Shown: piece by piece, positions 26,130 to 58,276 of the stretch
Numbering within the stretch: position 1 is the first letter of the stretch
Layout of the letters: every line of letters begins with the position of its first letter
Origin: a virus
Taxonomy: Duplodnaviria > Caudoviricetes
Strand: one strand, 5' to 3'
DNA: 64,000 nt
Virus record (IMG/VR): IMGVR_UViG_3300035520_001075
Span: 64,001-128,000 of that record
Translations under genes and position numbers: made by a program
The notes under the pieces: generated by a model
Told to the model about the DNA's origin: nothing
Database searches by the model: none
Seen by the model: the letters and a program-made list of their open reading frames with translations, nothing else

Positions 26130-26573
26130 TTAAAATTCTTCCCATTCTTCCATATTTTGTGTTATTGTTTTTACATAAGAATTTCCATTAAGACGGGTAT
26201 ATCTTTCATATAAAGAAAGCCAGTCCTATTTGGCTCGTGTTGGAATTCGTTTTTCATCCTTATAAGCGACATACAGAGTAGTAATCTCGTGTCTTAACAT
26301 TACCAAATCATTTTGATTCTGAGCATTTAGCTGTCCCTTAATGTCATCTAAAACAGCCTTAATATCACTCATATCCTTATTAATCTGATTAGTATTCTCG
26401 CCTTCTTTAATTCCTCTTTCCTCATACGCTTCTGCGGCGGCCTCTTTGGCTATTTTCTTAATCCAATCTCTTGGCTTTTTAAAAACCATCCCCCATAATG
26501 CCGCTAAAGTAATAATTGCTCCAGCCGCTCCGCCAATTGTTTTTAGTATTTCTAAAAAATCTAACCAACTCAT
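26130..26573 (-). CDS. Membrane-anchored phage protein (holin/lysis-accessory-like), 1 in-frame TAG, 147 aa
   Basis: N-terminal TM helix. TAG at 26228-26226 reads through to DWLSLYERYTRLNGNSYV..., ending at TAA 26130. Confidence 0.7.
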
Positions 26574-26574
26574 T

Positions 26575-26988
26575 TCAAAAACCTCCATGTGATATAATAT
26601 AATCATTATGATATATATCCCTCACACGATAAGAAGGTTCTGTTATTATTTTGCCCAAAGTTAATCCTTCTAAATCCCAATAAGGAATTCTTATCAATGG
26701 TATATTATGTAGTATGCAATATTTGTTTTTACGTCTATCCCATTCTCGTTGCTTTTTAAAACCGAAAATGTTCTTATGAAAATGTTTTGTAAATTTGTAG
26801 TGTTGAATCCCATCTACTTCAAGGAGAAATAATATTTTATTATTCTTATAAACAGCAAAGTCAAATCTTAATGGAACTTGCTTTTTACCTACTAAATCAG
26901 TAAATGATATTTCCCTTTTAAATGCTATTCCGTTCTTATTAAAAATATCAATAAGTTTTTGTTCACCTTTAGAAGTCTTAATACTCAT
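26575..26988 (-). CDS. DUF559/Vsr-like PD-(D/E)xK nuclease
   Basis: SKGE, LRFDF, EVDGIQHY, LIRIPYW. Confidence 0.65.
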   Translation of the reverse strand: MSIKTSKGEQKLIDIFNKNGIAFKREISFTDLVGKKQVPLRFDFAVYKNNKILFLLEVDGIQHYKFTKHFHKNIFGFKKQREWDRRKNKYCILHNIPLIRIPYWDLEGLTLGKIITEPSYRVRDIYHNDYIISHGGF

Positions 26989-27781
26989 CTCTATCTCCTC
27001 TTCTAATAGGCTTTTCTCTGAATTCTGTAGGAACTGGATAAGGCGGCAAAACGCAAGGAAAACCAGTAGGGATTTCTTTTGGTTGTTCCATTTCCTTAAC
27101 TTTATGCGGCTCAATATGATATGTTGCCACATGATGAAGGTGTGGATAATCTTCTGGTCTTTTCTTTTCTTTATTAAATTCGTAGAACTGACAATCTAAT
27201 TCAGCAGTGAAGTAGGTTGTGTTAATAAGGTCTAACTCTTTTCCGTCTTTTTCTTTTTTCTCCATATCTTCTCTCCAAACTAATAAGTTAATTTGGAAAT
27301 TCTCTACGGTTTCATCGGTTAAAGTATATTTTAAATGATAAAAGATTTCCTTGCCTTCACTAATATCATATTCATTTGTCTTATCGTTCCAAATAGCAGT
27401 TATTATTGCTAAATAATCTTCAAAATCACAGAGGAATTGTATAAAGTCTTTATTGTGATATTTAACTTCTTTTATTGAGCCAGATTCTTTCTTATCCTGT
27501 ATTGTGGCGGCCATATCAAAGGTAAAATAATCAGCATAGTTTTCTAAATCAAATCCTTCAAAGTTTGGCAGCGGTCTTGGAAAATACTTAGATTTGTACC
27601 ATTTAAGCTCTAAATCCTTATTTGGATTACCAAGCAAATTTTCAATTAATGAAGCCGCTTTTAAATAATCCTTACGAATTGAACAAATAGGAAACTTCTT
27701 ACAAGAATAACATTTTGGCTGAACTTTCGTAGGCTCTGGCGGCACATTATTAGCTGGCTTTAAATAACAATTATTTCTCAT
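26978..27781 (-). CDS. Hypothetical protein with Cys/Pro-rich termini
   Basis: ORF with RBS. Confidence 0.6.
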   Translation of the reverse strand: MRNNCYLKPANNVPPEPTKVQPKCYSCKKFPICSIRKDYLKAASLIENLLGNPNKDLELKWYKSKYFPRPLPNFEGFDLENYADYFTFDMAATIQDKKESGSIKEVKYHNKDFIQFLCDFEDYLAIITAIWNDKTNEYDISEGKEIFYHLKYTLTDETVENFQINLLVWREDMEKKEKDGKELDLINTTYFTAELDCQFYEFNKEKKRPEDYPHLHHVATYHIEPHKVKEMEQPKEIPTGFPCVLPPYPVPTEFREKPIRRGDRDEY

Positions 27782-27862
27782 TCTATCACCCCTTTACATA
27801 AAATAAAGAGAAAAATCTCTTCTCTATGTTAAGTAAAAGGGCTTCTTTTAAGTTCTAATATT

Positions 27863-28996
27863 TTAATTATTTTCAATTTGCGACCAATCACAGTCGGCGG
27901 CCGCTTTATCAGGACGTTCTTGGACTATTTTACCATGTCTTAAAGAATAGTGTCCTGATATATATTCAAGCTCCATGCAAGTAAGTTCATAGACCTTATT
28001 AAGGTATTTCTCAGGATTTTCAACAATTCCTTGCTTCATTTCATCTGTAATTCCAGAAATCCAGCCTATACGAATTGGTTTTCCATCTTTCATTACTGAG
28101 AACGAAATTGCACTTGCCCAGCCATAATAATAAGCTTTTGTAATTGGAGTTAAAGCTCTACCTTGGTAATAATCATAGTACATATTTTTATTAATCTTTT
28201 CTCCTGTTTTATCATTAATCCAGTAATTCCAATTCTCAATTTCTTTGCCATTATATTCTTTAGTAGGGCTCTTATATTCTCCATCAATAAAAGCGTCTAT
28301 TGTCTGTTCTATTTCCATTTTAACTTTAAGAGTTTTTCTACTTGTTCTCTTGCCTGGCTCAGCAATTCCGTTCTTTTTGTAAAGTACCATTCCTTCGTCG
28401 CCACGTTTTAAAATTTCACCTAATTCATTCCAAGCCTCTTCTCCTTCTAAATATTTAGCTATATCTATATATTCTTTTCCCTTACTGGCGGCCGCTATAA
28501 AAGTATCTAAATATTTTCTAATTCTATCTTCAAATTTAGTATTGAGTAGACTTTTTCCATTATAAGCCCAGACATCAAACACATAGTAGTGGAGTTTCTC
28601 ACCTTTTTCTTGTCTATCAAGAGCTTTATTAAGTAAACACCCAAGTATTGTTCCTACTTTACGACTTCCTCTTTGTTCAGGAAGATATAATTCTCCAAGT
28701 AAACAAGTTCCATTAGGTAGACTATCAAAGAATTCTTGGCACTGAGGTGTCCATTCTATTTTATTTAAATATCCTCCTTCTACACTTTCAGAGCGGCCTT
28801 GTAATCTCATGTTTCCATTATTATCTTTTATAAATCTTGCATAGTGGCCATCATTCTTTAGAGCTCCAAGGTACTGTTTAGAGAGGAACATTTGTTTTGT
28901 TTCTTCTTTTTTATTACCTTTATAGGATTTAGCAAATGACCAATAACGTTCTGCAGGAAGTTCTTCAAAATCTACATTATCAATTATCATACTCAT
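27863..28996 (-). CDS. ATP-dependent DNA ligase
   Basis: KNDG (motif I), LGELY, YYVFDV, EGMVL, LKVK, SLRH...RPDK. Confidence 0.85.
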   Translation of the reverse strand: MSMIIDNVDFEELPAERYWSFAKSYKGNKKEETKQMFLSKQYLGALKNDGHYARFIKDNNGNMRLQGRSESVEGGYLNKIEWTPQCQEFFDSLPNGTCLLGELYLPEQRGSRKVGTILGCLLNKALDRQEKGEKLHYYVFDVWAYNGKSLLNTKFEDRIRKYLDTFIAAASKGKEYIDIAKYLEGEEAWNELGEILKRGDEGMVLYKKNGIAEPGKRTSRKTLKVKMEIEQTIDAFIDGEYKSPTKEYNGKEIENWNYWINDKTGEKINKNMYYDYYQGRALTPITKAYYYGWASAISFSVMKDGKPIRIGWISGITDEMKQGIVENPEKYLNKVYELTCMELEYISGHYSLRHGKIVQERPDKAAADCDWSQIENN

Positions 28997-29112
28997 ATTT
29001 TATCTTATCTCCTTATTATTATTATTATTATTAATTATATTATATATTATATACTAATGATAATATATAATAACCAATATCAACCAACCTATTTCTTTTC
29101 TCCAAAACTTAT

Positions 29113-29184
29113 GTGAACGGCTACGAGCGGAGCGAGTAGCGTTCACCGCCACTCGATGCACAACTTGTTGTGCATCCTGTGGCG
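29113..29184. repeat. Two adjacent GC-rich hairpins (candidate origin or primosome signal)
   Basis: GTGAAC-GCTAC...GTAGC-GTTCAC and CGCCAC-GATGCACAAC-TT-GTTGTGCATC-GTGGCG, next to a very AT-rich tract. Confidence 0.6.
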
Positions 29185-35135: not shown

Positions 35136-37136
35136 ATGGCAGTTTTTATAGATTTTCCTTCTGGAACAGGAAATACAGGAGAAAAAGGCGAAAAGGGTGA
35201 TAAGGGCGATACTTTATACTCTGTAAAATTTGATACAGTACTTGCCGCAAGTGATTGGTCATCTGACGGAACTTATAAAATTACTTCTAATGAAATTGAT
35301 GCAGATAGCTTAGTTGACATTGGACTACAGCAGACAATTACAGAAACTCAGATAGATAGTTTCTTAGCAGGAAAAATTGTAGCCACAGACCAAGGCGATG
35401 GCTATATTACTTTGACTGCTTACGACGATGTTCCTACTGAGGATATACCAATTACTGTTGTTATTGAAGGCAGTCAGTTAGAAACAAAAGTTGTTGAAAA
35501 AGTAAGCGGCGGCGAAACAGATTATGGTACTATTGCAGTAAGTAATGACAATGAGATTACTATTTCTACAGCAATTGGTAAAAAGCATACATACACTTTT
35601 GAGACAACTCCTCCAGAGAATCCTACTACTACATATTCTATTGTACACAGAAATCATGTCGGCGAAGTTTTTAATTATGGCGACAAATGCTATGATTATT
35701 ATGAAGTTTTTAATGCGGACGGAACTGCACATACTGATGGAATTTTTGGCGGCCCAATCATAACTGGTACAAGTAAACCTTCTGCCAATGGAGCTTTTAG
35801 TCATGCAGAAGGATATAACTCTACAGCAGATGGAAATTATTCTCATTCTCAGAACCAATGGACAATTGCATCGAGCGATGCTTAGACAACAATGGGTAAA
35901 TTTAATGTAGAAGATACTAACGATACTTATGCTTTAATAATAGGTAATGGTTCTTCTAATTCAAATCGTAGTAATTTATTTGCAATAGGTTGGGATAGCA
36001 AACTCTACGTTAACGATTCTTCTGGAAACTTTGTAGGTATTGATATAACCCAATTATCCTCAAGCTCTGAAGGCTCTGGTTCAACCGTTTCTTGGGCTGG
36101 CACAACAACCTCAGGCGAAGAAATTGGTAAATTGACAGTAGATGGAACAACTTACACTCTCTATTCTTCAACCGCAGACGAAAAAGTTAAGAATATTCCA
36201 AGTACCACAACTAAAGCTTATTTAACAGGCACAAGTAGCACAACCCAGAATACTGGTTATCAATACTTTGATACTAACGTTTATATTGGTGAAGAGTCAG
36301 GCTCTCTCTATGCAACAACATTTTATGGAGCTTTGGACGGCAATGCTTCTACTTCGACAACATCAACTTATGCAACAGGCGTAAAAGTTGTTGAAACAAA
36401 TCCAACATCAATTTCATACTACTATCCATATTGGGGTTCAGAAACCACTACAACTGGAACTTCTGGAGCAACACTTAGAGATAATAGCGGCTTTAAATAT
36501 GCAACAAGAACAGGTACTACAAAACAGAATGGTTTATCTCAGATAATAGTTGGTAATTCCGTTAAATCAGGTACAGCAGGCAATGCGGAAGGTGCTATAG
36601 CTATTTATGGTTCAAGTTCAGGCTATAATTCACTAAGTACTAACAATTCTTCTACAACAAATTATAATAACTATTTACCAGCAGAGTCGGGAACTTTAGC
36701 TCTTTCGACCTCAACACAGGTTATTGAACTTGTTTCTGGAAAGGAAACTTTAATTGTTAATGGTCCAGTCGTCACGGTTATTTTTAACAACCTTTATCTT
36801 TCAGAATATGTTGCAATTGGTTCAGAGTATTTACCAACAACAGACGTAAGTTTCTTACTCCAGACTACTAATAGTGATACTGGTTATTATGAAATAGATG
36901 ATAAATCAACAACTCGTGGATATGTAAGTCTTTTTGAGCCTGCATATGGAACTATTACTTCTTCTGGTTTATCTGATATTATTAGAATAGACCAATCAGT
37001 CACGGCACCACTTGATTCAGAAATAATTTGGTCAGCAGGCGGATTAACTTCTACTCTATTAAAATCTCATTTCTCAGAAAACAATAAAGTAAGAATTACT
37101 GGTTCAGTGACTTACGTTAGAAATTATACAACATAA
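35136..37136 (+). CDS. Tail fibre/receptor-binding-like protein, 1 in-frame TAG, 666 aa
   Basis: Two track ORFs in one frame, joined at TAG 35883-35885: SHAEG...TIASSDA[Q]TTMGKFN...IIGNG. Confidence 0.78.
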
Positions 37137-38809: not shown

Positions 38810-39619
38810 ATGAGAATGATGTCTACTACTTCTGTTGAAGCTTATGAAACCGCTTTAATAAAGGACAATATTTATAAGGTTAAATTGAGAACAAATATAG
38901 AGCAGAAAATAAATGGATATTTCTACTATAACGAGTATTCTCTTATAACTGAATTAGATGATATAAGCGTTTTAGATGATATAGATACTTTTAATAAATA
39001 TCTCGAGGCCGCACAGTTAGAGGAAGAGGCTAAGAATAAAGAAAAGAAAATCAAAAATTTAAAACAGAATCTTGAAAATACTGATTATCAGGTTATCAAG
39101 AGCTTAGAAAATTATTCTTTAGGTTTAACTCTTCCATATGATTACTCTGCTTTGATTACTAAACGTCAGGAAATTAGAGACAATATTAATAATCTTGAAA
39201 GTGAAACTGATGAAATAGATGAATTATCACAAATTCAGCAACGTAAAATTAATGAAATGTGTTCAATTTGTCAAACTACAATTACAAACGGCATTGACTA
39301 TAACGATGAACATTATCGTCTTAATACCACAGATCAGATTAATTTAACTTCTCTCTATGCTCTTGCTCAGGTTGGTCAATCAGTTCCTTATCACGCAGAT
39401 AGTCAGGTTTGTAGAATTTACACTCCAGAAGAAATGATTGGCTTAGTCCAGACGGCAACAAGCTGGATTACTTACCACACTACTTATTATAATCTTTTAA
39501 AAAATCAAATTCTTGCAATGGACAATATTGATGAAATTAAATCAGTTGTATACGGAATGGAATTAAAGGAGGAATATCAGAGTATCATTAATTTGATAGT
39601 GAATAGCAATGCTCAGTAA
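38810..39619 (+). CDS. Tail fibre assembly-like protein (DUF4376-like C-terminus)
   Basis: LENTDYQVIK; DQINL...PYHAD...CR.Y; follows the fibre genes. Confidence 0.6.
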   Translation: MRMMSTTSVEAYETALIKDNIYKVKLRTNIEQKINGYFYYNEYSLITELDDISVLDDIDTFNKYLEAAQLEEEAKNKEKKIKNLKQNLENTDYQVIKSLENYSLGLTLPYDYSALITKRQEIRDNINNLESETDEIDELSQIQQRKINEMCSICQTTITNGIDYNDEHYRLNTTDQINLTSLYALAQVGQSVPYHADSQVCRIYTPEEMIGLVQTATSWITYHTTYYNLLKNQILAMDNIDEIKSVVYGMELKEEYQSIINLIVNSNAQ

Positions 39620-40067
39620 ACTAAAAAGTATTGTTAAATATTTGTTCCTTTTTCTTGTTGGCGGCTCTGCTTATGTCGGGACAGAGCTGCTTTACAGGGG
39701 TTATTCTCATTGGACTATGTTTATAGTCGGCGGCCTTTGCTTTATTTGTGTTGGTTTAATTAATAATATCTTTTCTTGGAATATATTACTTGAACTTTAG
39801 GCATTATTTGGGTCGTTGATTATAACATTATTAGAGCTAATTAGTGGAATAATTATTAACTTAATTTTAGGGTGGAATGTATGGGATTATAGCAATGTCC
39901 CCTTTAATTTCTTAGGATAGATTTGTCTACCATTTACATTCTATTGGTTTTTACTTAGTATATTAATTATAATCTTAGATGATACAATACGATATTTATT
40001 TTTCAAAGAAGAAAAGCCTCATTACAAAATTCTGTATTTTAAAATAAAAAAAGGGAACAAGATTTAA
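39609..40067 (+). CDS. Multi-TM membrane protein (PF06541-like), 2 in-frame TAGs, 152 aa
   Basis: RGYSHWTMF..GG; readthrough gives WNVWDYSNVPFNFLG[Q]ICLPF. Confidence 0.8.
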
Positions 40068-40277: not shown

Positions 40278-40352
40278 TCCTTTCTTTTCCGATTTTCTAT
40301 AATAATTATATCATAGTCTTTTTATAAAGTCAAACATTGTGAGGTGAGACCG

Positions 40353-40661
40353 ATGAAGAAAATAGAAACCTCTAAACTTTTGCTTTGCTTTGCTATTTTA
40401 ATTAGTTTAGGAATTACAGTATTTAGCTGTATTATGATGGTTGTTTTTTAGACATATGAGCCATTGTGCTATCTAATTCCCTCTATTTTTACAGAATGTG
40501 CGGCGGCTACAGGATTTTATTATAATAAATCTAAGCACGAAAACAAAATTAAAATTGTCTTAGGAGCAATTTCAGAAATTAGTGAGAAAAATAATGAAGA
40601 TGAATTAACTGAAAATGAAGTTAGAATCATTGAAAGTTTAAGTAATATTTTAAATGATTAA
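40353..40661 (+). CDS. Putative holin, 1 in-frame TAG, 102 aa
   Basis: GAGGTG RBS; two TM segments; TAG at 40449-40451; TGFYYNKSK.EN motif; directly upstream of the endolysin. Confidence 0.72.
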
Positions 40662-40674: not shown

Positions 40675-41925
40675 ATGAGTAATTTTTTAACACCAGATAG
40701 AACCTATAAAGCAAATGGATTAACAGTTAAAGAATTTCTTTTAACTAAATCAAAGAATAATCCAAATAAAATTGATATGCCAAGCGGCAATCGTAAGAAG
40801 ACAGTAGCTATTACTGTCCATAACACAGAAGCAGTTAATGTTTCTTCAAGTACAACAATGGCAGAACAGTATACAAGAGCAACATATAACAATGCTATGA
40901 AGACTGTTCGAGTACATTATTATGTTGATAATGTTTGTGCTTGGCAGAATTTACCAGATGACTATGTAAACTGGTCTTGTGCAGATGGTACTTCTGATGC
41001 TAATAGCGGTAATAATACTACTGTAGCAATTGAAGTAATTGGCAACTCGGCGGCCGCAGAAGCAAATGCGGTTAAGCTTGTGGCTTATCTTTTAAACAAA
41101 TATAACCTTGATGTTGCTGATGGTGTAAGAAGCCATACATACTGGCTTGCAAGAAAAGCGGGCAAATCAGGAACAATTGATACTATGTGTACAACAAAGG
41201 GACTTGCGAAATATTGTCCAATTTATATTTTGCCGCATTGGTCTACTTTTAAGAGTAATGTTGAAAAATCGCTTAATGCTCTTAAAGGAACATCGACAAG
41301 TTCAAGTTCAAGTTCATCAACTTCAAGCTCAACAGCTACATCTACCACAATAACCTATAGAGTTCGTAAAACTTGGGCAGATGCAAGTTCTCAGATAGGG
41401 GCTTATAGTTCTCTTGATAATGCTAAAAAAGCTTGTAAGGCGGGTTATAGCGTTTTTGATGAGAAAGGCAATGTTGTTTATACTAATAGTACTTCAACTA
41501 CTACTACTACTACTGTAAGTGTTCCTGATGTAAAATATAGATTGTATAGTAATGGTGCTTGGTCAAGTGAAATTACCAATGCAACTTCTTATGCTGGTAA
41601 AGATAAATATGCCGCAAATGGCTTCGCCGCAACAGTTTCAAAAGGCTCATTAAAGTATCGTGTTCATTTAAACGGCGGCGGCTGGTTAAGTTGGATTACT
41701 GCCTATAATATTAATGACTGGAATAAGGGTTGTGCAGGATTAAAAACTCAGCAGATTGATGCAATTCAGATAGAACTTCTTAATTGTAGTGGCTATCAGG
41801 TTAAATATAGAGTTTCTTCTACTGCTTCAAGTAATTACTATGATTGGGTTGAAGGAATTTCTGATTATGCAGGAGTTTTTGGAAAGCCTGTCGATAAGGT
41901 TCAGATTGAGATTATTAAGAAATAA
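40675..41925 (+). CDS. Endolysin, N-acetylmuramoyl-L-alanine amidase (Amidase_2) with C-terminal binding repeats
   Basis: ITVHNT, VHYYVD, AIEV, SH, CP; Ser/Thr linkers. Confidence 0.85.
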   Translation: MSNFLTPDRTYKANGLTVKEFLLTKSKNNPNKIDMPSGNRKKTVAITVHNTEAVNVSSSTTMAEQYTRATYNNAMKTVRVHYYVDNVCAWQNLPDDYVNWSCADGTSDANSGNNTTVAIEVIGNSAAAEANAVKLVAYLLNKYNLDVADGVRSHTYWLARKAGKSGTIDTMCTTKGLAKYCPIYILPHWSTFKSNVEKSLNALKGTSTSSSSSSSTSSSTATSTTITYRVRKTWADASSQIGAYSSLDNAKKACKAGYSVFDEKGNVVYTNSTSTTTTTTVSVPDVKYRLYSNGAWSSEITNATSYAGKDKYAANGFAATVSKGSLKYRVHLNGGGWLSWITAYNINDWNKGCAGLKTQQIDAIQIELLNCSGYQVKYRVSSTASSNYYDWVEGISDYAGVFGKPVDKVQIEIIKK

Positions 41926-42068: not shown

Positions 42069-45000
42069 ATGGCAATTAATACAAATGAAGCGGACCAGAA
42101 TAAAAATAAAGATAAGATTACAACTATTTCTGGTGCGACAGAGTATGAAATTAATTCTGAAAAAGAAAAGAATGAAATTAATTCCTTGAGATTTAAGCAA
42201 AGCTATTATGCTTTTTTAGAACTACTTTCTGATTTATATCCAAATGCGTTGGGTGTAAAAATGCTTGGTGTAATTGGTGATAATAGTCTTTTTGATTCAG
42301 ATTCACAGTCGAATTTAGATGCTGAATATTTAGATTGGCTACTTGATGTAGACCACTTTATGAAGGGCGTTAGAAGCGATAGAAATATTTCGCCAGAAAA
42401 ATTATTAAAATTATATCAAACAGCAATAGGGCTTTTCTTTGATTCAGACGATGCCGCACAATACTTACAAGATTTTGGCGATACAAAAGTATCAGATACT
42501 AATGGTGGAAAAGTAATAAAGTATAACGGTAAGTCATATCTTCTTTCAGATATGGAAAGCCGCTATAGTGATATGAAAACGGCGAAAGATACAAGTGCAG
42601 AAAAAGAAGGTAAAGAAAAAAATTATTTTAATATTCCAGCATTAACAGAAATAAATGAAGCTTACACCGCAGTTGCAAAAATGTTTGACTTTAATGGAGA
42701 TAACTTAATAGGCACAGACGATGCCGTAATTGCTCTCAAGTTTTTTGCTATTGACTTAACAGACGCAGAAAGAGCTTCTTCTATAAAAACGTATACTTAT
42801 GATGTTTCTACAATTCAGTCAGCAGGAGGCTTCGATGAGTGGCCAGCTTTAAGTCGTGATGGGTAGGATTTAAAAAATAGTGATGGAAAGAGTTATTGTG
42901 TAATCTCGAAAGGAGAAGGAAAGGTTTATTTTTATAATTCTTCAACATATTATACAGAAGCTTCTGCAAGTAAAATTGCAGAAAAACTTAAAGCGAAAGA
43001 AACTGACTTTAGAAAACTTCAAGCTAAAGAGTATACAACAGGTACATCAGATTCAAATAAGGCTTTAGATAAGAACATATATTCTGCATTAACAAGACTC
43101 TCGTTCCCTACTGGAGGAAAAACTTATAATTCCAGATGGGCAGTATCCTTATTAAGAACAATTAAAAAAATAAATATTCATAATAAGAAATCTTCATCAA
43201 CACCTTATGTTTCCGTAGCTGAATTTGCGGCTTATTTATATCAGAATTCTGACGAATATATAAACTTATTAAAAGATACCAGCAATATTTGGAATGAAAA
43301 TGGTGGAACAGAGGACGAAGAAATTAGCGAAGAAGGTTGGAACGAATCCATAAACAAATTATATGACTTAATTAAAGAATGGTGCTTAACCTATGGATTA
43401 ACAAGTGATTTATATCATGATTCCTTTAAAGATTGGATAGACGGACTAAGAAGAGCAGATGCAAAAGGTACAGAAGCTAATTACTATTTAGACCCAAGGC
43501 CATTAAAGAACGTCTTTGACCAAGTTTATACTCAGGCACGTGCTGATGAGATTAAGATGAATGTAGATAATATGGACTATACTAATCTTACAAAGGCTAT
43601 TGCAGATGAGGTTGCTAATGGAAACGTAAGCACCGATACTTTAAAGGCTGTCGTTAATTTATTAATGCCAGAATATAAAAGAAGAGTTGAAGTAGAAGAT
43701 TTGGATAAAAACTTCTGGGTAATTTCTCAGTTATTAAGTGCTATATTAAGCGTTCTTTTTGGCGATGATAATGGATTACAGGGAATTCTGAAAGGACAAA
43801 TGGCGGAAACAATGGAACTTTGGAATAATGTAAAATATTTATGGAACGTCACCCAAATGTAGGCAAGAATGATTGATAATTTAGCTAAGTCGCTTGAAAT
43901 TTTAAGTGGAGATGTTGACGAAGGCGATGATGCTTTTGAGATTTCTAAAGAAGTTTATCAATATACAGCAAAGGCAACAGATACTTCTAATATTAATTCT
44001 GATGAGTGGACAGGCTGGGCGTTAGATTTAGATGGAGATGATTCAGTTTCTTGGTATGATGCTTGTTTGATTTTAAAACTTTATGCCTGTTGGATTCTTT
44101 ATCACAACGATGAAGATATAACATATACAGATTTAAATGGATATGAGCAAAAAATTTTCCCAAATATTATTAAGGTAACAGAAGGAGAAACCTTTAAGAG
44201 TTATCAAGATTTTATAAATTGGTCTAAAAAAAGTACATGGGGGCTTACTTTAAATTATGTAGAAGAAGGAGAATATAAAGACAGAGCATTAATGATAAAA
44301 TGGAATTTTGATACAAAAACTACAACAAAGGATGGTACTTTACTTGGAACTTGGTTTTATCAAAAGATTTTTTCTAATTATGCCTATCCTTTAGATATCT
44401 AGAGTGGTATGTCATATGAGGAATTGGAGCTTTTCACCGGTGTGGGAGGCCTAACCGATACAGACACTGGAATGCCATTTTTTGGTTTTAATAATAAATA
44501 TTTATTAGAAGATGAAAAAAATGGTCTTACTATTTGTTCTAATGTACGAAACGCATATCTATCTTGTGGCGGAACAGATGACAATGCTACAGATAAAGAA
44601 AAATTTGCTTTCGTATTAAAACATTATGGAATGGATAATCGTTATTTTTCAGGCTTTTCTCAAACCGCCTATTGTGATAATGTATTAGATAAATCTGATA
44701 AGTACATATTTTATTATATTGGAGGTAGAAATTATCAAAGATATGATGGATTAAATACTTACAAAGTGATGTCGGCAATAATACTGAAAATGATGCAGGG
44801 TATAGCCACCTATTTCAAAGGAAGTTCAGACAGGACAGGAATTCTAAACTATGCCTTGTCGTCTATAGCTGGAAATGTTTCTTCCTTGTATTCTGATAAT
44901 GTCAGCTTAGCTCTTCATAGAATAAATTATTATCCAGCAGGTCAAAAAGAAGAATTTGATGGAAATGATATTAATAAGGATATTTATCGAGGAGAAAGAG

Positions 45001-45839
45001 CCTTAATAGTTCAATTTGCGAGTGACAGTACTGAAGAAGAATTAAAAGAGTCTGTAGTAAATTCCGAGCAAGGAATTGGTATTAAAAATACTTATTCAGA
45101 ATGTTTTGGAAAAACCAGCGACGTAAAAGGGATTGGCGGTGCCAGATTAAGAACATCAATAAGCGGATGTGATGTTGCTATATTTTTACAAGACGGAGAC
45201 TATTATAAAGAAAATGACAGTATAAATGAACTTGGTATAAAACTTTATAAAAAATATCTTTTAGTTTGTATGCTATTGGCTACAGAAGGTATCAGTACAG
45301 CAGATTCTCGACTTGCAGTCACCATATTACAAGTATTAAGTCAAAATACTCATTTATCTAATAAAAATTTCTGGAAGACTTTTAAAAACAATCAAAAGAA
45401 TTTTTCTCTGAGTAATCAAAATATGGTAAAAGCGTGTACAATTAGTGGTACAAAATCTGATTTGTCCGATTTAACATATATAATAGCCTTTAACTAGGAA
45501 TATACTATAAACGAATATAAACTAACACTTTATTCGGAAGACGGAAAAACAATTTCACGAATAGAAGGCGAAAATAATAATCCTACTGCAACATATACTT
45601 CAGAAATGTTGTTTGAAACACTGACATATAATGGGAAAAAAATTTATCCAGGCTTTACAGGGGCATTAAATGGAGAATACCCAGAATATATGGTAGGAGG
45701 AGCATATAACTCTCGATATGTTTATGACTATTCATTAAGCGATTTTGCAGAAAAAACAATAGATAATACTTCTGGACAGAAATATAATGAGGCAGAACAC
45801 AAAAGTTTCCATATTGTACAAACATCGTCTAACGGGTGA
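42069..45839 (+). CDS. Large probable virion protein, 4 in-frame TAGs, 1256 aa, two dockerin/EF-hand-like motifs
   Basis: Five track ORFs share one frame and are separated only by TAG (42864, 43860, 44400, 45495); ends at TGA. Confidence 0.75.
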
Positions 45840-45845: not shown

Positions 45846-47348
45846 ATGATAACAAATACATCATCCCTAACCTTTCTCCCATCTGACCTCTCCGATGCAA
45901 CTGCCCAATCTCCATCTCTCACAATCACTCTAAATAATAAAGATTACGAAATAACTAAAACAAAAACCTTAAAAATAGTAGCAACTCTATCAAGCAAATC
46001 TGACCCAAGCATTTCTTATTCCGATTCAAAAACAATCTATCTCAAAGGAATAAGTGAAATTGAAATTGAAGAAGAACTTCCAGAACCGCCAACAGTAATC
46101 AATGGCTCATTCCCAGAAGGCTTTACTTCTGATGACCTTGTAATTATCTATAATACCGATGAATCTTATTCTTCTACCTTAGATATTGATTCTTTAAATA
46201 AGATGGCATTAGATTATATGGCAAACATTGGCAAAGAAGTAGACTCAAATACAATTTACTACCAAAAAGATAGCTCTGGAAGAATTTACGTGCTTGTTAG
46301 AAAAGACGATACAACATCTTATGATAACGACCTAATAACCCTTGAAGATGGAACTTTATGTTATAAAGTCTATATTGACGGCAGTTGTGAAATAGTTGGA
46401 TTCCAAGACAATAGCGGCGGCTCTGATTTCAATCTTGAATTAGGTACTGGTTATTACTATGCGATAGCAAATCAGCTTTACTTATTTAACTGCGTTTCCG
46501 CAAGACTTGTCAATTACAACACGACTCAAACTGGATTCTGGTTAAATGGAGAAACAGAATCAGATATTAAAATGTTCACAGACCAAGAAACTTATAAAAA
46601 TCATGCATATTATCTTGCTGTTGGTAGTGGGGTGACGAAAACTCCACTCCCAGCAATATCATCAGACGAAAACGTGACTCTTTGTTTTACAGCAGGAACA
46701 ATGAGGAAATTAGTTATCTCTGATACAATTGAAACAATTGAATATTTTGCAGATATTGTTAATGCAACAGATGGTATTATTATTTCTTCTTCCGTTAAGA
46801 AAATAGGGGACTATGCTTTTTATGGAAGCTCAATAAGCGGACAGATAACAATCAACTCGCCGCAATTAGAAGAAATAGGACGCTATGCTTTTGCTAATAT
46901 GACAAATTTATCATTGCTTAATATTAATGCTGACGACAATGGATATTGTATTTTACCAAAGAATTTAAAAACAATTAAAGAATATGCTTTCTATAGAAGT
47001 TCAGGATTAAATAAAATAAGTTTTTCAAGTTGTGAGAAATTAACAACGGTTGAAAAAGAAGCCTTCTCGTCTTGTTCTAATTTGAGATATGTTAAATACT
47101 TAGAATCTCAAGTAGAACCAGACAATATAAGCTCAACTCAACTTTTGTACTTGCCGCCAGACCGTGGAACAGGCGGTAATTATGCTCCAAGAAAAACAAC
47201 AGATTCTTCAAACAACACAGTAATTACAGCTTTATATGCTTATGATTATACAAGTGAGTATGCTTATCCAAACACAACATAGGACGAAATTGAAAACAGT
47301 ACCTATACTTTTTTAAATTGTTCTAATATAGAATGGATTTGTGAATAA
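45846..47348 (+). CDS. BspA-type leucine-rich repeat (LRR_5) protein; TAG readthrough extends it to 500 aa
   Basis: IGDYAFY, IGRYAFA, IKEYAFY, VEKEAFSSC repeats; TAG at 47280 is followed by another FLNCSNI-type segment. Confidence 0.75.
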
Positions 47349-50997: not shown

Positions 50998-51828
50998 ATG
51001 TTAGCAAAAAGATGGAATCAGAATGGAAAAGTTATAATTTTAAGTGAAACTACAGATGAACCAATTACTCTTGCTGGTGAAATGGCAGGAAAATGTTGGG
51101 CAGCTGATACTGCTTCTCATGAAAAGAATTTTAAAAGAGGACTTGATTGCTTAAAAAGTGGTCATGGTCGAGTTTTAGAGTATGCTCAAATTTATATGGA
51201 GATTAGCGGCTATTCAGCAAGAGTTATTAGAGAGTTTGAAAGACACATAGGCGGCAGCCCTACTTATCTTCAGGAATCAACACGTTATGTTCTTGATGAG
51301 AATTTTGGTTTTATTACGCCGCCGTCCATTAAAAACAATAACGAGGCTAATACAGTTTATAATAATGTAATGAATACTATTGCTTATGGGATTGAGGAAC
51401 TAAAGAAAAATGGCACTCCAAAAGAAGATATTAGCATGATGCTTCCTCTTGGAATGGAAACGAAAATAGTCCATAGAACTAATCTAAGAAATTTAATAGA
51501 TATGAGTAGAGTGAGATTATGTAGTCGAGCTTATTGGGAATATCGTCAGCTTATGAAAGATATTTTGGAGAGTCTTTCTATTTATTCAGATGAGTGGGAA
51601 TATTTAATTAAAGAGGAAAGAATTTTTAAGCCGAAATGTGAAGACGCAGGATATTGTAATGAGAAGTTTTCATGTGGTTATATTAATAAAATACAGAAAG
51701 ATAATAATAAATTAACCGAAGACCAAAAATAGCTTATCGAGTATGGAAAAGAACATCTGAATGAATATTGGTCGGTTTATCATCTTAGATATGATGAGGA
51801 AACTGGAAAGATAGTAAAAGATGAATAA
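50998..51828 (+). CDS. thyX: FAD-dependent thymidylate synthase (TAG at 51730 probably read through to TAA 51828)
   Basis: SGHGRVLEY, REFERH, QESTRY, NLRNL, RLCSRAYWE. Confidence 0.88.
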
Positions 51829-51837: not shown

Positions 51838-52878
51838 ATGAATACAGCTATATTAATATTAATTTGCTTTGCTTGTGCGATTGGCGGTGCAGGGCTATTA
51901 GAAATTGCTTATCTGTTATTGCCTTTTAAGAAGACAAAATAGAACTTTTCTGATGAATAGGAAGCAGTAATTAAAGGCTTGACTAAGAAAAAAGATTCTT
52001 ATGAAAAAGAAATTACCGCAGAAATTTAGAATAATATTAGAGAAATTAAAGAGGAAGAAAAAAATCTTAAAGAGCATTTCGAGGAAAAACAATTTCAGCA
52101 CGATAGAGCTATTGAAGAGCTTGAAATTCATTATAAGAAAAAGCAAGATGCTCTTAATGCTTTAGAAGAAGCTGCCGCAAAAGAAAGACATAATGATTTA
52201 TCTAAGAAAATTGCCGATGAACAAGCAGCGGCTACTGTAGAATTAGGAAAAATCCAGCAAGATTATAAAGATAAAAAAGATGAAATAGAAAATGATTTTT
52301 TTCAATTCAGCGAGCAAATAAATTCTCAAAGGGCGACTCTTGAAGAAGAGCTTAGGCAATATCAGCAACAGCAAAAAGAAGTTATTGCTCGCTTTAAAAA
52401 AGATGAGGAAATTAGACAACAAAGAGATTTTTACCATATTACTATTACTGAAAATGCAAAACGAGATATTAAGAAATTAAAAGATTTGGCTCTTGAATTT
52501 TCTAAGCCAGAAGCCTTGTACAAAGTTATCTATGATGTTTACTATAAAAGTAAAGTTGAAGAGCTTTTTGATAGGGTATTAGGAGATAATAAAGATAAAG
52601 GTGGTATTTATAAGATTACTAATATTAATAATGAAAAAGCCTATGTTGGTAGAACTATTAACTTCAAAAATCGTTTCAAGGAACACGTTAAACGAGGTTG
52701 TGGGCTTGACGTAATTAATGGTAGAATTTATGATGTAATGTTTAATGAGGGCATAGAAAATTTTTCTTTTGAAGTAATAGAAGTTTGTGATAGAAGTGAG
52801 CAAGCCGCAAAAGAAAAATATTGGATTAATTTCTATGGAACATTAAGCTATGGATATAATTCTCGACAAGGCGGCTAA
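51838..52878 (+). CDS. TM + coiled-coil + C-terminal GIY-YIG protein, 3 in-frame TAGs, 346 aa
   Basis: GGAGG RBS; TAGs at 51940, 51958, 52027; continuous frame into GIYKITN..YVG. Confidence 0.78.
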
Positions 52879-53319: not shown

Positions 53320-54267
53320 TTGATTAAAATTATTGAACTCTTTTCAGGCGTTGGCACACAAATAAGAGCTTTTAAGAACGTCTATGATGACGTTGAATCA
53401 ATTGGGATTAGTGAAATTGATAAGAGAGCTATTAAAGCCTATAATATTTTAAATTCTGAAACGAAAAATTTTGGAGATATTACAAAGATAGAATCCTTAC
53501 CAATTTCTGATGTCTGGACTTATTCATTTCCTTGCACTGATTTGTCCATTGCAGGAAAGCAGAAGGGTTTTCAAGGAGAAAATTCCTCACTGCTTTATCA
53601 GGTTAAGAGATTGTTAATAAACTCTAATAAACCTAAAATTCTAATAATGGAAAATGTTGCTAATTTGTTAAGTCCTAAATTTTATGATGACTTTTCTGAT
53701 TGGGTTTCTTTTTTAGCATCATTGGGCTATGCTAATTCTTGGACTAAAGTTAGAGCTTGTGATTATGGAGGACTATCTATACGAAATAGGGTCTATATGG
53801 TTTCTGTTTTGGGAGACAGAGGATTAATTTTTCCACAAAATTTTACAAGTAAAACTATCGTTAAAGATATTCTTTTGCCGCCACAACCAGAATTCTTAGT
53901 TGATAGTGATACTTCTTTATATCATGAAATAGAACCTAACTATGGCAATTCAATTCGTATTGGAAATCTTCAAGGCAAAGAAGGACAGGGCAACAGAATT
54001 TATTCAATTTTTGGTCAAGCTATTACTTTAACTTCTAATGGAGGAGGTAAAGCTGGCTCAAGTGGCGGCTTATATGCACGAGAAACAGGAATTTATAAAC
54101 TAAGTGGAATTGAAATGATGAGGATAATGGGCTGGAGTTTAGAAGATTCTATTAAGCTGAATAGTGAAATGAGTTATAGGGCTGTTGGATTTTTAATGGG
54201 GAACTCTATAGATTTAACAGTATTAACCCGAATTGTAGAACAAATTAAAGCATTAGGGCTATTATAA
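53320..54267 (+). CDS. C5-cytosine DNA methyltransferase
   Basis: ELFSGVG, GDI, SFPCTD, MENV, RNR, GNS motifs. Confidence 0.9.
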   Translation: MIKIIELFSGVGTQIRAFKNVYDDVESIGISEIDKRAIKAYNILNSETKNFGDITKIESLPISDVWTYSFPCTDLSIAGKQKGFQGENSSLLYQVKRLLINSNKPKILIMENVANLLSPKFYDDFSDWVSFLASLGYANSWTKVRACDYGGLSIRNRVYMVSVLGDRGLIFPQNFTSKTIVKDILLPPQPEFLVDSDTSLYHEIEPNYGNSIRIGNLQGKEGQGNRIYSIFGQAITLTSNGGGKAGSSGGLYARETGIYKLSGIEMMRIMGWSLEDSIKLNSEMSYRAVGFLMGNSIDLTVLTRIVEQIKALGLL

Positions 54268-54278
54268 AGGAGAACTAA

Positions 54279-54967: not shown

Positions 54968-55510
54968 ATGGCTATAGCAGACCTTGTATATCCATCAGAC
55001 CTTAACGGATATTATTGCTGCCCTCCAACAAAGAAGGCATCTACATCAACTGATTCAACAGCAAGTTCAACAACAACAAATTGCAACTGTCAGCCTCCAG
55101 AGTATCCATATCCATACCCACCATTTGGCTATCCATACCCTCCAGTGCCGCCACAGTCAGAAATAAAGATTAAAAAGAATTCTGTTGAATCTCAGATTTG
55201 CAAGTTATCAAAGAAATCTGCTGTTATTAAGAAAATGATAGAAGATTTTGAAGATAAAAATAAAGATGCTATACTGAAAATCGGAGCTTCGACATATAAT
55301 TTTGGAAGTTTTTCTGTGATTACAGTAGAAGATGATGGCTCTAAATCAGAGGACGAATCTGTTTACGGCGAAACAATTCTCACAGACCTCCTTAAAAAAG
55401 AGCTTGAAGCTATCAAGACTAAGCTTGTAGAACTTACAAGTGAACTCGAAGATGAGGTTGGGGAATCAACAACCGTTGAAACAACTGAAAAGACAATAAC
55501 TCAGTCATGA
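54968..55510 (+). CDS. Hypothetical protein with Cys/Pro/Tyr-rich N-terminus and coiled coil
   Basis: YYCCPP, YPYPYPPFGYPYPP. Confidence 0.6.
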   Translation: MAIADLVYPSDLNGYYCCPPTKKASTSTDSTASSTTTNCNCQPPEYPYPYPPFGYPYPPVPPQSEIKIKKNSVESQICKLSKKSAVIKKMIEDFEDKNKDAILKIGASTYNFGSFSVITVEDDGSKSEDESVYGETILTDLLKKELEAIKTKLVELTSELEDEVGESTTVETTEKTITQS

Positions 55511-55601
55511 GGATATAAGTCAGGGGTTTATTAGCCCTTGACTTTTTTTATTTATTATGGTATAATTATTATAGAAAATAAAGAAAAGGAATGATTGCGG
55601 T

Positions 55602-55883
55602 ATGCTTACAAAAAGAACAGTTCCATATGAAGAAACAGAGAGAATACTTTTGTTTTTAAAACTTCTAAAATTAGAATATAGGACTATTCGTATTAATAAT
55701 TGCACAAGTGCTTTTCTTAGCTTTCTAAGAACAAGTGGTTTCCAGTATAACATAGGAAAAGATTCTAATCAGATTGAAATAGCAGGTAATACTATAGGTA
55801 TTGTAGAGCTTGAATACACAGAAGAATCTTTAAAGAAGCGAATTAAATTTCATGAGTCTTTAATCCCAGATTTTCTTGAATAA
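55602..55883 (+). CDS. Hypothetical protein
   Basis: ORF downstream of a promoter. Confidence 0.5.
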   Translation: MLTKRTVPYEETERILLFLKLLKLEYRTIRINNCTSAFLSFLRTSGFQYNIGKDSNQIEIAGNTIGIVELEYTEESLKKRIKFHESLIPDFLE

Positions 55884-55911
55884 AATTATAAATGAACGGA
55901 GGAAAACCAAA

Positions 55912-56229
55912 ATGAAAATCTTTATAAGTCAGCCAATGAACGGCAGAACAGATGAACAAATCCTTAAAGAACGTGCAGAAACAGAAAATTTCCTACGAGA
56001 AAAGTTCAAAAAAGAAAAAGTTGACATAAGCATAATCAATTCTTTTATCACAAATGTAGACCCTAATGCTGGACCGCTTTACTATCTTGGTCGTTCCATC
56101 TCTTTATTGGCGGCCGCCGATGCTATTTATTTTATAGGGGAATGGTATAATTCTCGTGGCTGTAGAATTGAGTATGATTGTGCTAAAGAATATGGAATTA
56201 AAATACTTGACTTTTCTAAAGAATCATGA
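55912..56229 (+). CDS. DUF4406 / nucleoside-deoxyribosyltransferase-like protein
   Basis: IFISQPMNG, ADAIYF..W..SRGCRIE. Confidence 0.7.
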   Translation: MKIFISQPMNGRTDEQILKERAETENFLREKFKKEKVDISIINSFITNVDPNAGPLYYLGRSISLLAAADAIYFIGEWYNSRGCRIEYDCAKEYGIKILDFSKES

Positions 56230-56261
56230 TATAATTATAGTATAATAAAAGGAGGGTTAAA

Positions 56262-56672
56262 ATGAAAGAAATAACTCTTAAAGAAGCTTGTAAAGCCGCA
56301 AAGAAAGCGACTTGCCGCATATCTAAAAAAGATAAAAAGCGTTATAAAGAATCTAAAAAATTCTATAAGAAAAATGGTTTCTATTTTGAAGATAGCTGGA
56401 ATCTTGATGCTTCAATTGCCGCTTTTATCTTACCTCGCTTAGTCCAATTGCGAGATGTGGGACAAGGCTGTCCAAGCTCTTTGGTAAATAATGATAAAAG
56501 CCCAAATCAAAATGAATGCCATATAGAATGGCGTAAAATATTGAACACGATGATAAATGGTTATTACTTATATTGTACAAAAGAACATTTTGATTGGAAA
56601 GAAAAAGATTTTGAACTTTGGAGACAAACAAAGCAGCTAACAATGCAATATTATGAATCTCTTTGGGACTAA
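56262..56672 (+). CDS. Hypothetical phage protein
   Basis: WNLD..IA..ILPRL, W..IL..MI, LWD pattern. Confidence 0.6.
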   Translation: MKEITLKEACKAAKKATCRISKKDKKRYKESKKFYKKNGFYFEDSWNLDASIAAFILPRLVQLRDVGQGCPSSLVNNDKSPNQNECHIEWRKILNTMINGYYLYCTKEHFDWKEKDFELWRQTKQLTMQYYESLWD

Positions 56673-56740
56673 AATACTTTACTTTTATTCTCAATTATGA
56701 TATAATAATTATAGTAAATTAAAGAAAGGAGGAAATAAAA

Positions 56741-57043
56741 ATGGGTGATGAAAAAGTTTTTCGTGTTGTAAAATCAAAATTCATGATGAAAATAACTGAG
56801 CTTGAAGAAGTTGAAGCTAAAGATGAGAATGGTGAAACTACGAAAGAATTAAAAGTAATCAATTCTAAATGGATTCCAATGAGGGGTAAAGAATTTTCTG
56901 AGTCGATGAAAGAAGACTATGACAGAGGAATCAAGCATCAGATTACAATTGTAAAAGATGAACCAGATAAGTTCCAGTTCAATCATATCTACATTCACGC
57001 TCTTGGAAAGAAAGCTTGGACTTATATTAAGAAAGAAGATTAA
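56741..57043 (+). CDS. Hypothetical protein
   Basis: ORF with promoter and GGAGG RBS. Confidence 0.6.
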   Translation: MGDEKVFRVVKSKFMMKITELEEVEAKDENGETTKELKVINSKWIPMRGKEFSESMKEDYDRGIKHQITIVKDEPDKFQFNHIYIHALGKKAWTYIKKED

Positions 57044-57115
57044 AAAGTAAACTACTTTACTTTTTAAGAAAGTTATGGTATAATAATTATAGAAAAGTTA
57101 AAGGAGGGAAAGCAA

Positions 57116-57241
57116 ATGGGAAAAGAAACAACATATGAAGTGGTTTGTGAAAAGTGTGGCAAAGTTTTTGAAGCTCATGATGAGAATTGTGTGCTTTGTA
57201 ATGATTGCTGGGAAAAAATAATTGAAGATGAAGGAAAGTAA
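57116..57241 (+). CDS. Small Zn-ribbon protein (41 aa)
   Basis: GGAGG RBS; CEKC...CNDC. Confidence 0.55.
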   Translation: MGKETTYEVVCEKCGKVFEAHDENCVLCNDCWEKIIEDEGK

Positions 57242-57318
57242 ACTACTTTACTTTTTAAGAAAAATATGATATAATTATTATAGTAAAGATAAAAAAGAGT
57301 TTTATCTTTACTTTAGAT

Positions 57319-57393
57319 TTGGGATTAGTTTAGTCAGTAAAACGCAAGACTTTGGATCTTGAATGGTGTGAGCGTAGCATACATCCCAAGCCA
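57319..57393 (+). tRNA. tRNA-Gln(UUG) with atypical D and T loops
   Basis: TTGGGAT/ATCCCAA acceptor, G73, CCA; CAAGA-CTTTGGA-TCTTG anticodon arm. Confidence 0.82.
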
Positions 57394-57449
57394 CTAAAAA
57401 TTTTTCTTAAAGAAAGAAGCTAAATTAAATTAGCGTATACTTAATATAT

Positions 57450-57589
57450 TGGCAGGTAGACGAATTGGTAAAGTCCTCGGTCGGCTTATAAAAAGTTTTG
57501 GCAGGGGCAGTACCTGCATAAGCCACCATCTAAAACCGAAGACGGAAGGGAGACCTTCCATAGGAGTTCGAAGCTCCTCCTGCCAGCCA
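57450..57589 (+). tRNA. Amber suppressor tRNA (CUA) interrupted by a 46-nt intervening sequence at 57483-57528
   Basis: TGGCAGG/CCTGCCA-G-CCA acceptor; D arm; spliced anticodon arm TCGGT-CTCTAAA-ACCGA; long variable arm; AGGAG-TTCGAAG-CTCCT T arm. Confidence 0.85.
57483..57528 (+). ncRNA. Nested tRNA-like minihelix inside the suppressor anticodon loop
   Basis: GGCTTAT/ATAAGCC 7-bp stem, GCAGG-GGCAGTA-CCTGC 5-bp arm, ACCA end. Confidence 0.82.
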
Positions 57590-57616
57590 TAGTACTTTTT
57601 TGAAAGGAGAATTATA

Positions 57617-58276
57617 ATGAGAACATAGAAGTGTAATATTTGTGGAGAAGTTAAACCAATTGAAGATTTTTATTTTCGCAAAGATTTAAACACATACCGA
57701 AAAAATTGTAAAGAATGCCATAACAGAGGTAGGTCTAAGAAAAATAAGAAAGGCGGCTCATGTGGAATTTACAAAATAGTCAACAATATTAATCACAAAG
57801 TTTATATTGGACAGTCAATTAATATTGAAAAAAGAATTGCTAAACACCAAAGTATGGCAAAAAGCGGAGGTGAAATGCCGTTATATTGTGATATTAGAAA
57901 GTATGGTGTTGAAAATTTCTCATTTGAAATTATTGAATTATGTGATAAAGATTCTTTAGATAAAAAAGAAAGAGAATATATAATTCAATATCAAAGTTTA
58001 GTATCTCAAAATGGATATAACATTGATGAAGGTGGACAGAAAGGTCGAAATTATCACCCAGAAAGTGATGGAATGGCTAAATTAAACTGGGACATGGTTC
58101 ATCAAATTAAACAGCAGCTAATAATAGGCACTCCAAAAAGAGAATTAGCTGAACAATTTGGCGTATCAGTTTATGCAATTGATGATATAAATAGAGGTAA
58201 GTCTTGGAAAGAAGACGATTTAATATATCCAATTTATAGTTTTCAAAAACATAAGTCAAACAATCCAATTGTTTGA
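57617..58276 (+). CDS. Zn-finger + GIY-YIG endonuclease with TAG at codon 4, 219 aa
   Basis: AAGGAG RBS; MRT[TAG]KCNICG...CKEC...GIYKIVN...VYIGQS. Confidence 0.8.

Follow-up and report, generated by a model that had tools for sequence, protein, structure and literature searches.

Several groups of gut phages (crAss-like, Lak, Agate, and other phages) follow the code-15 pattern, in which TAG is read as glutamine (Gln) rather than as a stop. The published model places recoding in the genes for structure, lysis, and intron endonucleases and leaves replication genes in the standard code (Borges et al., bioRxiv 10.1101/2021.08.26.457843). The field's open question is what switches the code as infection proceeds, and why a suppressor tRNA seems to be missing from most recoded phages. 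Here we analyse a 64,000-nucleotide stretch of a tailed-phage genome (the window), bases 64001–128000 of the 157,483-bp contig IMGVR_UViG_3300035520_001075 (GC 31%), classed in IMG/VR as a complete virus record with direct terminal repeats. The window contains nine genes that have TAG codons in frame and the only tRNA(CUA) of the genome, a candidate amber suppressor interrupted in its anticodon loop by a 46-nt structured cassette. Like the code-15 gut phages (bioRxiv 10.1101/2021.08.26.457843), this phage has TAG in structural and lysis genes, replication genes in the standard code, low GC, a phage-borne tRNA(CUA), and preferential recoding of homing and intron endonucleases, with the lysis membrane proteins recoded most strongly. 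Unlike them, it belongs to an SPbeta/YonF-type terminase lineage whose nearest cultured relatives infect Bacillota, its genome yielded no release-factor gene and no tRNA synthetase gene (neither GlnRS nor GluRS), and its suppressor gene is interrupted. Recoding of TAG to Gln in late phage genes is already known and this phage is one more lineage; the interrupted Gln-type suppressor and its conserved cassette go beyond published work.

Three further systems invite comparison. The proposed ‘Phassvirus’ group, represented by phAss-1 (Babkin et al. 2023, PMC10607447), likewise comprises large siphovirus-type gut phages with a YonF-like large terminase (TerL) and no dedicated aminoacyl-tRNA synthetase. 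phAss-1 also reads TAG as Gln, in ~28% of its open reading frames (ORFs), including TerL, portal, and tape measure, but it carries 36 tRNA genes with three intact tRNA-Sup(CTA), whereas the phage described here has one ordinary tRNA, two aberrant ones, and one interrupted tRNA(CUA). Theta ribozymes are, like the cassette, small structured RNAs attached to suppressor tRNAs of recoded gut phages; the genomes that carry them are enriched in RNA ligase genes, and it has been suggested that theta forms part of what triggers the code switch (Kienbeck et al. 2024, PMC10879173). Theta ribozymes, however, sit at the tRNA 3′ end and act in trailer trimming, whereas the cassette lies inside the anticodon loop, ends in ACCA, and has no HDV-like covariance match. 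Finally, as in the T4 Rnl1 and Pnkp repair system, an Rnl1-family ligase stands beside a polynucleotide-kinase-type protein next to phage tRNA genes. Unlike in T4, the phosphoesterase module is predicted to be an HD domain rather than the Pnkp phosphatase, and the substrate proposed here is the interrupted tRNA of the phage itself, in place of a host tRNA that an anticodon nuclease has cut.

The TerL of this phage is of the SPbeta YonF type. Its closest cultured relative is that of Geobacillus virus E3 (39% identity), other near cultured relatives come from Enterococcus, Bacillus, Brevibacillus, Lactococcus, and Clostridium phages, and identity to the TerL of phAss-1 is ~30%. Metagenomic relatives number in the hundreds, many on 140–185 kb contigs, and those with TerL at 61–72% identity are likewise recoded, with 5–12 TAGs within TerL. 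A DNA similarity search of GenBank phages with the 42–47 kb region returned no match. Judged from its TerL relatives, the lineage is probably Bacillota-infecting and SPbeta-like.

In-frame TAG codons and their very probable reading as glutamine

A sequence-only reading of the window had listed 15 in-frame TAGs in nine genes, each followed by a continued open frame. All 15 occur where it had placed them and in the frames given, the one written as 26226(−) being the minus-strand codon 26228–26226. Thirteen of them must be read through; the remaining two, at 47280 and 51730, are C-terminal and possible stops. Continuation past TAG is specific to that codon and far above chance. We took open segments of 80 or more codons and counted those in which the frame ran on for 50 or more open codons past the stop: these were 28 of 47 segments ending in TAG, 8 of 153 ending in TAA, and 6 of 54 ending in TGA. 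As background, a length of 50 codons is attained by only 3% of all stop-to-stop segments. Treating TAG as sense raises coding density, measured as greedy ORF coverage, from 0.777 to 0.858 and yields 178 ORFs that end in TAA (145) or TGA (33); TAA and TGA thus stay stops in this phage. The signal is stronger outside the window. There the same treatment gives one frame of 1953 codons, just upstream of the window, that contains 18 TAGs, and two others of 838 and 1876 codons that contain 13 and 5, respectively.

Within the window, TAG as sense joins 35136–35885 to 35892–37136 (+) in a tail-fibre-like protein of 666 aa, whose TAG at 35883 is codon 250 and is followed by 416 further open codons. It turns four fragments of the standard code (code 11) into one gene of 1256 codons and unknown function at 42069–45839 (+), with TAGs at 42864, 43860, 44400, and 45495, and homologs of 1178–1408 aa exist. 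It also recovers two small membrane proteins and two GIY-YIG endonucleases. The first membrane protein, a CmpB-type multi-pass protein and holin candidate at 39609–40067 (+), has TAGs at 39798 and 39918, both covered by PF06541 and phrog_20274 matches; the second, a holin-like gene at 40344–40661 (+), has one at 40449, and the phrog_17876 match (residues 4–72) covers that codon, number 36. The GIY-YIG homing-endonuclease-like protein at 51838–52878 (+; PF01541, residues 254–335) has TAGs at 51940, 51958, and 52027. The third of these is followed by 152 open codons without any ATG, GTG, or TTG, and therefore translation starts upstream and crosses all three. The other GIY-YIG endonuclease (57617–58276, +) lies directly 3′ of the tRNA(CUA) and carries TAG at codon 4 (57626). 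Its start is the ATG at 57617, which follows the Shine-Dalgarno sequence GAAAGGAG and precedes the TAG by three codons; a longer listed ORF, from 57449, overlaps the tRNA. Read in code 11, the first start would be 57854 and the GIY motif would be deleted. We take the position of an endonuclease gene inside a tRNA cluster to parallel that of T4 SegB.

That these TAGs are real stops, marking split genes, pseudogenes, assembly errors, or intron sequence, has a negligible probability in our judgement. The genome is rich in group I introns (an Rfam match at 12648–12876 and a split NrdD), and the TAG at 24871 is indeed an exon end. The continuation effect, however, is confined to TAG, homolog alignments cross the TAGs uninterrupted, independent assemblies carry the same TAGs, and TerL and other essential genes would be destroyed. 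At 24871 an early gene of the replication block had seemed to terminate in TAG, but this idea was dropped: an exon of NrdD ends there, followed by an intron.

The sequence-only reading had proposed Gln for TAG as fitting two protein motifs, and alignment at the TAG columns bears this out. Homologs have Q encoded by CAA or CAG at 35883, 39918, 43860, and 45495. In the motif FNFLG[Q]ICLPF (39918), Q is present in four of four homologs as CAA or CAG, and TIASSDA[Q]TT (35883) has Q, as CAA, in the tail spike of the cultured Flavobacterium phage immuto_3-5A. At 43860 all eight homologs have Q (CAG in one TAG-free homolog, CAA in another), and at 45495 five of eight do. For TerL, the Q found at codon 92 in 53 of 53 database homologs was set aside; these proteins were themselves translated with TAG as Q, so that Q columns in the database are partly circular. 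They were replaced by six cultured standard-code phages and by checks at the codon level. The cultured phages have Q at codon 92 in 6/6, E at column 155, and K, Q, or A at column 150; at the codon level, invariant Q columns of TerL are TAG in one clade member and CAA or CAG in another. Conversely, when the TAG codons of relatives are compared with the residue in this phage, Q accounts for 32 of 55, S for five, and every other residue for at most three.

TAG usage is strongly partitioned among gene blocks. A TAG was counted as robust if its ORF was 80 aa or longer and extended for 20 or more codons both before and after it; the whole genome has ~97 such TAGs. The packaging, head, and tail block (genome 1–60.9 kb) contains 68 of them, in 20 of its 39 ORFs, and TAG makes up 9.6% of its Gln-type codons; the tail-fibre and lysis block of the window has nine among 11 ORFs (7.6%). 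By comparison, the minus-strand replication and nucleotide-metabolism block, which occupies most of window positions 1–32.6 kb, has a single robust TAG in 35 ORFs (0.3% of Gln-type codons). The share of TAG in the late blocks exceeds that of the replication block with an odds ratio of 30 (Fisher p = 1.5e-9), and the two late blocks do not differ from one another (p = 0.61). The earlier proposal of a concentration of TAG in genes for virion, lysis, and homing nucleases therefore stands, the replication block being nearly free of it. Its companion, that TAG is sparse and marks an early stage of recoding, does not, given the similar shares in the window’s late block and elsewhere, the genome-wide count, and the recoded relatives. 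The one robust TAG of the replication block (26228–26226, codon 127) lies in a 158-aa protein of unknown function at 26130–26606 (−), where a phrog_4105 match to residues 94–153 covers it.

Within the late region the lysis cassette looks like the tightest target of the code switch. Neither of the two holin-like genes has a CAA or CAG codon, so TAG accounts for all three of their Gln-type codons, which makes them a clear case of holin genes with every Gln codon recoded. The adjacent amidase-type endolysin (40675–41925, +; phrog_15001, E = 5.9e-70) is free of TAG and has eight ordinary Gln codons. In-frame TAGs fall almost wholly in genes that would be expected to be late-acting: those for packaging, head, and tail, the tail fibres, the two holin-like proteins, the 1256-aa protein, and the free-standing GIY-YIG endonucleases. 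Nearly all of the replication and nucleotide-metabolism block, the endolysin, and the RNA ligase and kinase-HD genes described below can be read in the standard code. From these lines of evidence we conclude that the phage almost certainly decodes TAG as Gln with a bias toward late genes, the code-15 pattern.

The interrupted tRNA(CUA) and its cassette

Standard tRNA finders report only an ordinary tRNA-Gln(UUG) at 57319–57393 (+; ARAGORN, Rfam 43 bits) and two aberrant tRNA-like genes in this phage. With introns allowed, ARAGORN also finds the candidate suppressor at 57450–57589 (+). This tRNA(CUA) has a perfect 7-bp acceptor stem, D, anticodon, and T arms, and an encoded CCA. Between C32 and U33 it contains a 46-nt insert, removal of which leaves the canonical loop C-U-CUA-A-A. 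In the minimum free energy fold of the 140-nt precursor every arm is retained (z = −3.8), and an identical copy of the gene occurs in three other assemblies.

Several features tie this tRNA to Gln. Its acceptor pairs U1:A72, G2:C71, and G3:C70, its G73, and its D-arm are of tRNA-Gln type, and without the variable-arm hairpin its body is 74% identical to the tRNA-Gln(UUG) of a relative. U1:A72 opens all suppressor and Gln tRNAs of the clade and is absent from the Tyr, Leu, Lys, Glu, and Trp tRNAs compared. By its sequence, then, the tRNA(CUA) is a tRNA-Gln relative. ARAGORN draws it as a 94-nt class-II-like cloverleaf with a 6-bp variable-arm stem and G73, and the long variable arm together with the tRNA-Ser-like G73 could be taken to mean that TAG encodes another residue such as Ser, Leu, or Tyr. 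We consider this very improbable. TAG columns are Q and not S, L, or Y (the invariant Q of TerL, GQIC, and NV..xQ.KMI of the 1256-aa protein), the TAGs of relatives align with Q far more often than with S, and the acceptor, G73, and D-arm are shared with tRNA-Gln, as is most of the hairpin-free body. A Ser identity of the suppressor, suggested by the variable arm and G73, was rejected on its Gln-type acceptor and the alignment of TAGs to Q.

The insert itself (57483–57528, +) consists of a 7-bp outer stem, an A/U-rich linker, a 5-bp inner stem with the loop GGCAGUA, and a 3′ tail ACCA. It is not confined to this phage. A relative with a complete 162-kb recoded genome (G005, five TAGs in TerL) has a 51-nt insert at 32/33 of the only CUA tRNA found in it, and would appear likewise to depend on a split suppressor. 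A 47-nt version interrupts the tRNA-Leu(UAA) of another relative (G002) and of four other contigs, and one contig has the cassette in a different tRNA with anticodon UAA. The homologous tRNA-Leu(UAA) of a third relative (G001) is without it, and by comparison the copy in G002 is inserted exactly at C32|U33. Intact tRNA(CUA) genes are found in G001, G002, G004, and one scaffold of the European Nucleotide Archive (ENA).

All copies share one plan of 7-bp outer stem, A/U-rich linker, 5-bp inner stem, GGCAG(U/A)A loop, and ACCA tail. Across this phage and four other tRNA contexts, 59 of 60 stem cells are paired, and 10 of 12 stem positions show two to four different pair types, with compensatory changes in all stems. 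These pairs were counted by script on a register set by hand, as a MAFFT alignment mis-gapped the copy of this phage. A stricter search pattern retrieved cassette copies; a loose one gave chance matches only, among the matches listed, and a metagenome scan with the anticodon-stem pattern likewise yielded nothing beyond chance. Judged from these comparisons, the cassette is a recurrent, structured, site-specific element.

The cassette matches no described class that we compared it with. Rfam contains no matching family, HDV-like ribozymes included, even at E ≤ 10 on the isolated region; together with the position between nucleotides 32 and 33, rather than within 5 nt of a tRNA 3′ end, this speaks against membership among theta or HDV-like ribozymes. 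A group I intron is ruled out by size (46 nt against a self-splicing P3–P9 core of at least ~200 nt), and RF00028 matches 12648–12876 and not this site. Nor does the cassette resemble an archaeal or eukaryal protein-spliced intron, which has a bulge-helix-bulge, usually at 37/38, that a splicing endonuclease cuts: every copy lies at 32/33 and is minihelix-like with an ACCA tail, although an EndA-type gene was not searched for. A full-text search of a paper library returned no description of such an element, the nearest being the theta ribozyme at suppressor tRNA 3′ ends.

An insert of another kind also occurs among relatives. A tRNA-Met(CAU) at 10873–11014 of a 174-kb relative (ENA ERZ922478 scaffold_11) has a 66-nt anticodon-loop insert that scores 35 bits against the Rfam tRNA model and so appears as a tRNA-like element nested in a tRNA. 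ARAGORN additionally calls a tRNA-Phe i(38,38) in G004 and insert-bearing Pro, Ser, and Leu tRNAs in G003.

The two aberrant tRNA-like genes of this phage lie downstream of the interrupted tRNA. The one at 58968–59035 (+), overlooked by ARAGORN, scores 48.9 bits against the Rfam tRNA model, and its acceptor, D, and T arms are well formed; the anticodon arm consists of a stem (GGAAA/UUUCU) closed by only two to four nucleotides, so there is no anticodon. The one at 59400–59473 (+) encodes CCA and has a 6-nt anticodon loop, AUUUAU, for which ARAGORN is undecided between Lys(UUU) and an ochre-type UUA. Approximately 365 nt of non-coding and apparently structured sequence separate them.

A possible maturation step and its alternatives

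Because the tRNA(CUA) is interrupted in its anticodon loop by the cassette, the suppressor most likely needs maturation. Our best overall explanation, in which we have good confidence, is recoding of late genes from TAG to Gln by way of a suppressor that most likely would first be matured. How it would be matured is more tentative. A candidate pair of enzymes is encoded 2.2–3.3 kb downstream of the split tRNA: a T4 Rnl1-type RNA ligase (59794–60861, +; PF09511, E = 7e-14) and a protein that joins a polynucleotide-kinase-like AAA_33 domain to an HD phosphohydrolase (60909–61814, +; PF13671, PF01966), a candidate RNA end-healing enzyme. Both genes are TAG-free. Rnl1-type ligases are encoded in five of five relatives tested. 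The ligase is TAG-free in both phages with a split suppressor, this one and G005, and has an in-frame TAG in G002 (C1:13832–14425, −), which has an intact tRNA(CUA) and a split tRNA-Leu(UAA). In this small sample the pattern is consistent with a ligase that has to be made before the suppressor works. A region of ~13 kb around the Rnl1 gene of ERZ922478 scaffold_11, by a tRNA array, encodes an Rnl1-type ligase, a Thg1-like 3′–5′ polymerase, a kinase-HD protein, and a second ligase (PF09414), and has an Rfam ‘drum RNA’ match (49.9 bits) between two tRNAs.

We hypothesize the following sequence of events. Early in infection TAG would still terminate, and late proteins, holins above all, would stay incomplete. 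The cassette would be excised at C32|G and after its ACCA tail, the kinase-HD protein would heal the ends if needed, and the tRNA halves would be rejoined by the adjacent TAG-free Rnl1-type ligase. Host enzymes would charge the suppressor with Gln, and once enough of it were available the late proteins would be completed. RNase P could plausibly make the 5′ cut, the cassette looking like an acceptor/T-arm minihelix ending in ACCA; we take such a minihelix, ending in N-CCA, to be a minimal RNase P substrate. To a cut-and-seal maturation of the tRNA(CUA) we would give slightly less than an even chance. The fuller proposal, that the switch from host code to TAG as Gln is gated by an inactive precursor from which the cassette is excised before the phage’s standard-code Rnl1-type ligase seals it, is put forward a little more cautiously still. 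The TAG at 51730, which lies beyond the complete ThyX domain, may act as a working stop early in infection. A sigma-factor-like gene outside the window (phrog_5767, genome 1106–2293) has five in-frame TAGs and, needing the suppressor itself, is possibly a further timing layer.

Several points weigh against this interpretation. We infer both the timing of the switch and the excision of the cassette, and no pair of enzymes is known in bacteria that would take a 46-nt insert out of position 32/33. The analysis turned up no nuclease for the 3′ cut of the cassette. A long variable-arm hairpin is unusual for a tRNA-Gln and might affect charging. Rnl1 with a kinase and phosphoesterase is also the classical counter-defence against host anticodon nucleases and is found in relatives with an intact suppressor, so its presence does not require a role in splicing. 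As to the reading of TAG itself, residues other than Gln occupy the variable columns at 39798 (K in four of four homologs), 42864 (F or N), and 44400 (I or N), and the TAGs at 47280 and 51730 may be plain stops.

Some of these points suit the view that the tRNA(CUA) is a dead gene and that TAG is decoded in another way: by a suppressor supplied in trans, whether its source is the host, a helper phage, or a co-resident prophage, or else by near-cognate Gln tRNAs once the phage has disabled RF1. A bacterial pathway for removing such an insert is not known. An insert-free allele of the tRNA(CUA) was not found in IMG/VR. Moreover, a TAG suppressor tRNA is present in only ~40% of TAG-recoded phages (Borges et al., bioRxiv 10.1101/2021.08.26.457843), which makes recoding without a recognisable phage suppressor common. 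We nonetheless regard a dead gene as quite unlikely. The tRNA body is perfectly paired and its CCA encoded, the compensatory conservation of the cassette across four tRNA contexts is unexpected for decay, a second recoded phage likewise has a split CUA tRNA only, and as many as 18 TAGs in one gene demand efficient suppression. Nor was any release-factor-related gene found in the genome.

A different question is whether the cassette, rather than being an RNase P-type minihelix, is a minimal self-cleaving ribozyme of the HDV-like or theta kind. The 2′,3′-cyclic phosphate and 5′-OH ends that it would leave could explain a kinase-HD enzyme beside the ligase. In our reading of the sequences the topology is like that of a nested double pseudoknot, with an outer stem starting from the junction and an inner hairpin; the invariant GG of the loop could pair with the invariant CC of ACCA, and the last part of the linker shows complementarity to the anticodon region. 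Theta ribozymes, too, adjoin the suppressor tRNAs of recoded gut phages (PMC10879173), although at tRNA 3′ ends and not inside anticodon loops. We judge a ribozyme improbable. Beyond the absence of an Rfam HDV-like match, a P4 helix is lacking, no catalytic C is clearly in place, one copy in the family begins with A instead of G, the register of the linker–anticodon pairing varies between families, and a single self-cleavage would be insufficient to release the cassette.

This phage does have a candidate suppressor, which a conserved insert conceals from standard tRNA finders and which lies near RNA-joining enzymes readable in the host code; the arrangement offers a concrete model of a timer. 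If the model is true, the cassette would be a small, mobile tRNA ‘mini-intron’ of bacterial viruses, dependent on proteins and of a class not described before, and would also account for part of those TAG-recoded phages that seemed to have no suppressor tRNA. Gene callers and tRNA scanners need an intron-aware mode for such phages.

Other features of the window

The two C-terminal TAGs are ambiguous by position. A BspA-type leucine-rich repeat (LRR) protein at 45846–47348 (+; PF13306) has TAG 47280 only 21 codons ahead of its TAA; the extension has no homolog support, the relative’s protein compared being not collinear. In ThyX (50998–51828, +), the PF02511 match spans residues 17–193 and TAG 51730 is codon 245. 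No homolog alignment reaches past residue 229, and the ThyX of a relative at 53% identity ends ~14 residues earlier.

On the minus strand, a group I intron lies at 12648–12876 (Rfam 75 bits). The first ORF of NrdD, at 24869–26044 (−), corresponds to profile positions 5–394 of 718, so this gene is split. A TAG-free C-5 cytosine DNA methyltransferase is encoded at 53320–54267 (+; PF00145, E = 2e-45), and GCGGCCGC is said to be over-represented in the phage genome.

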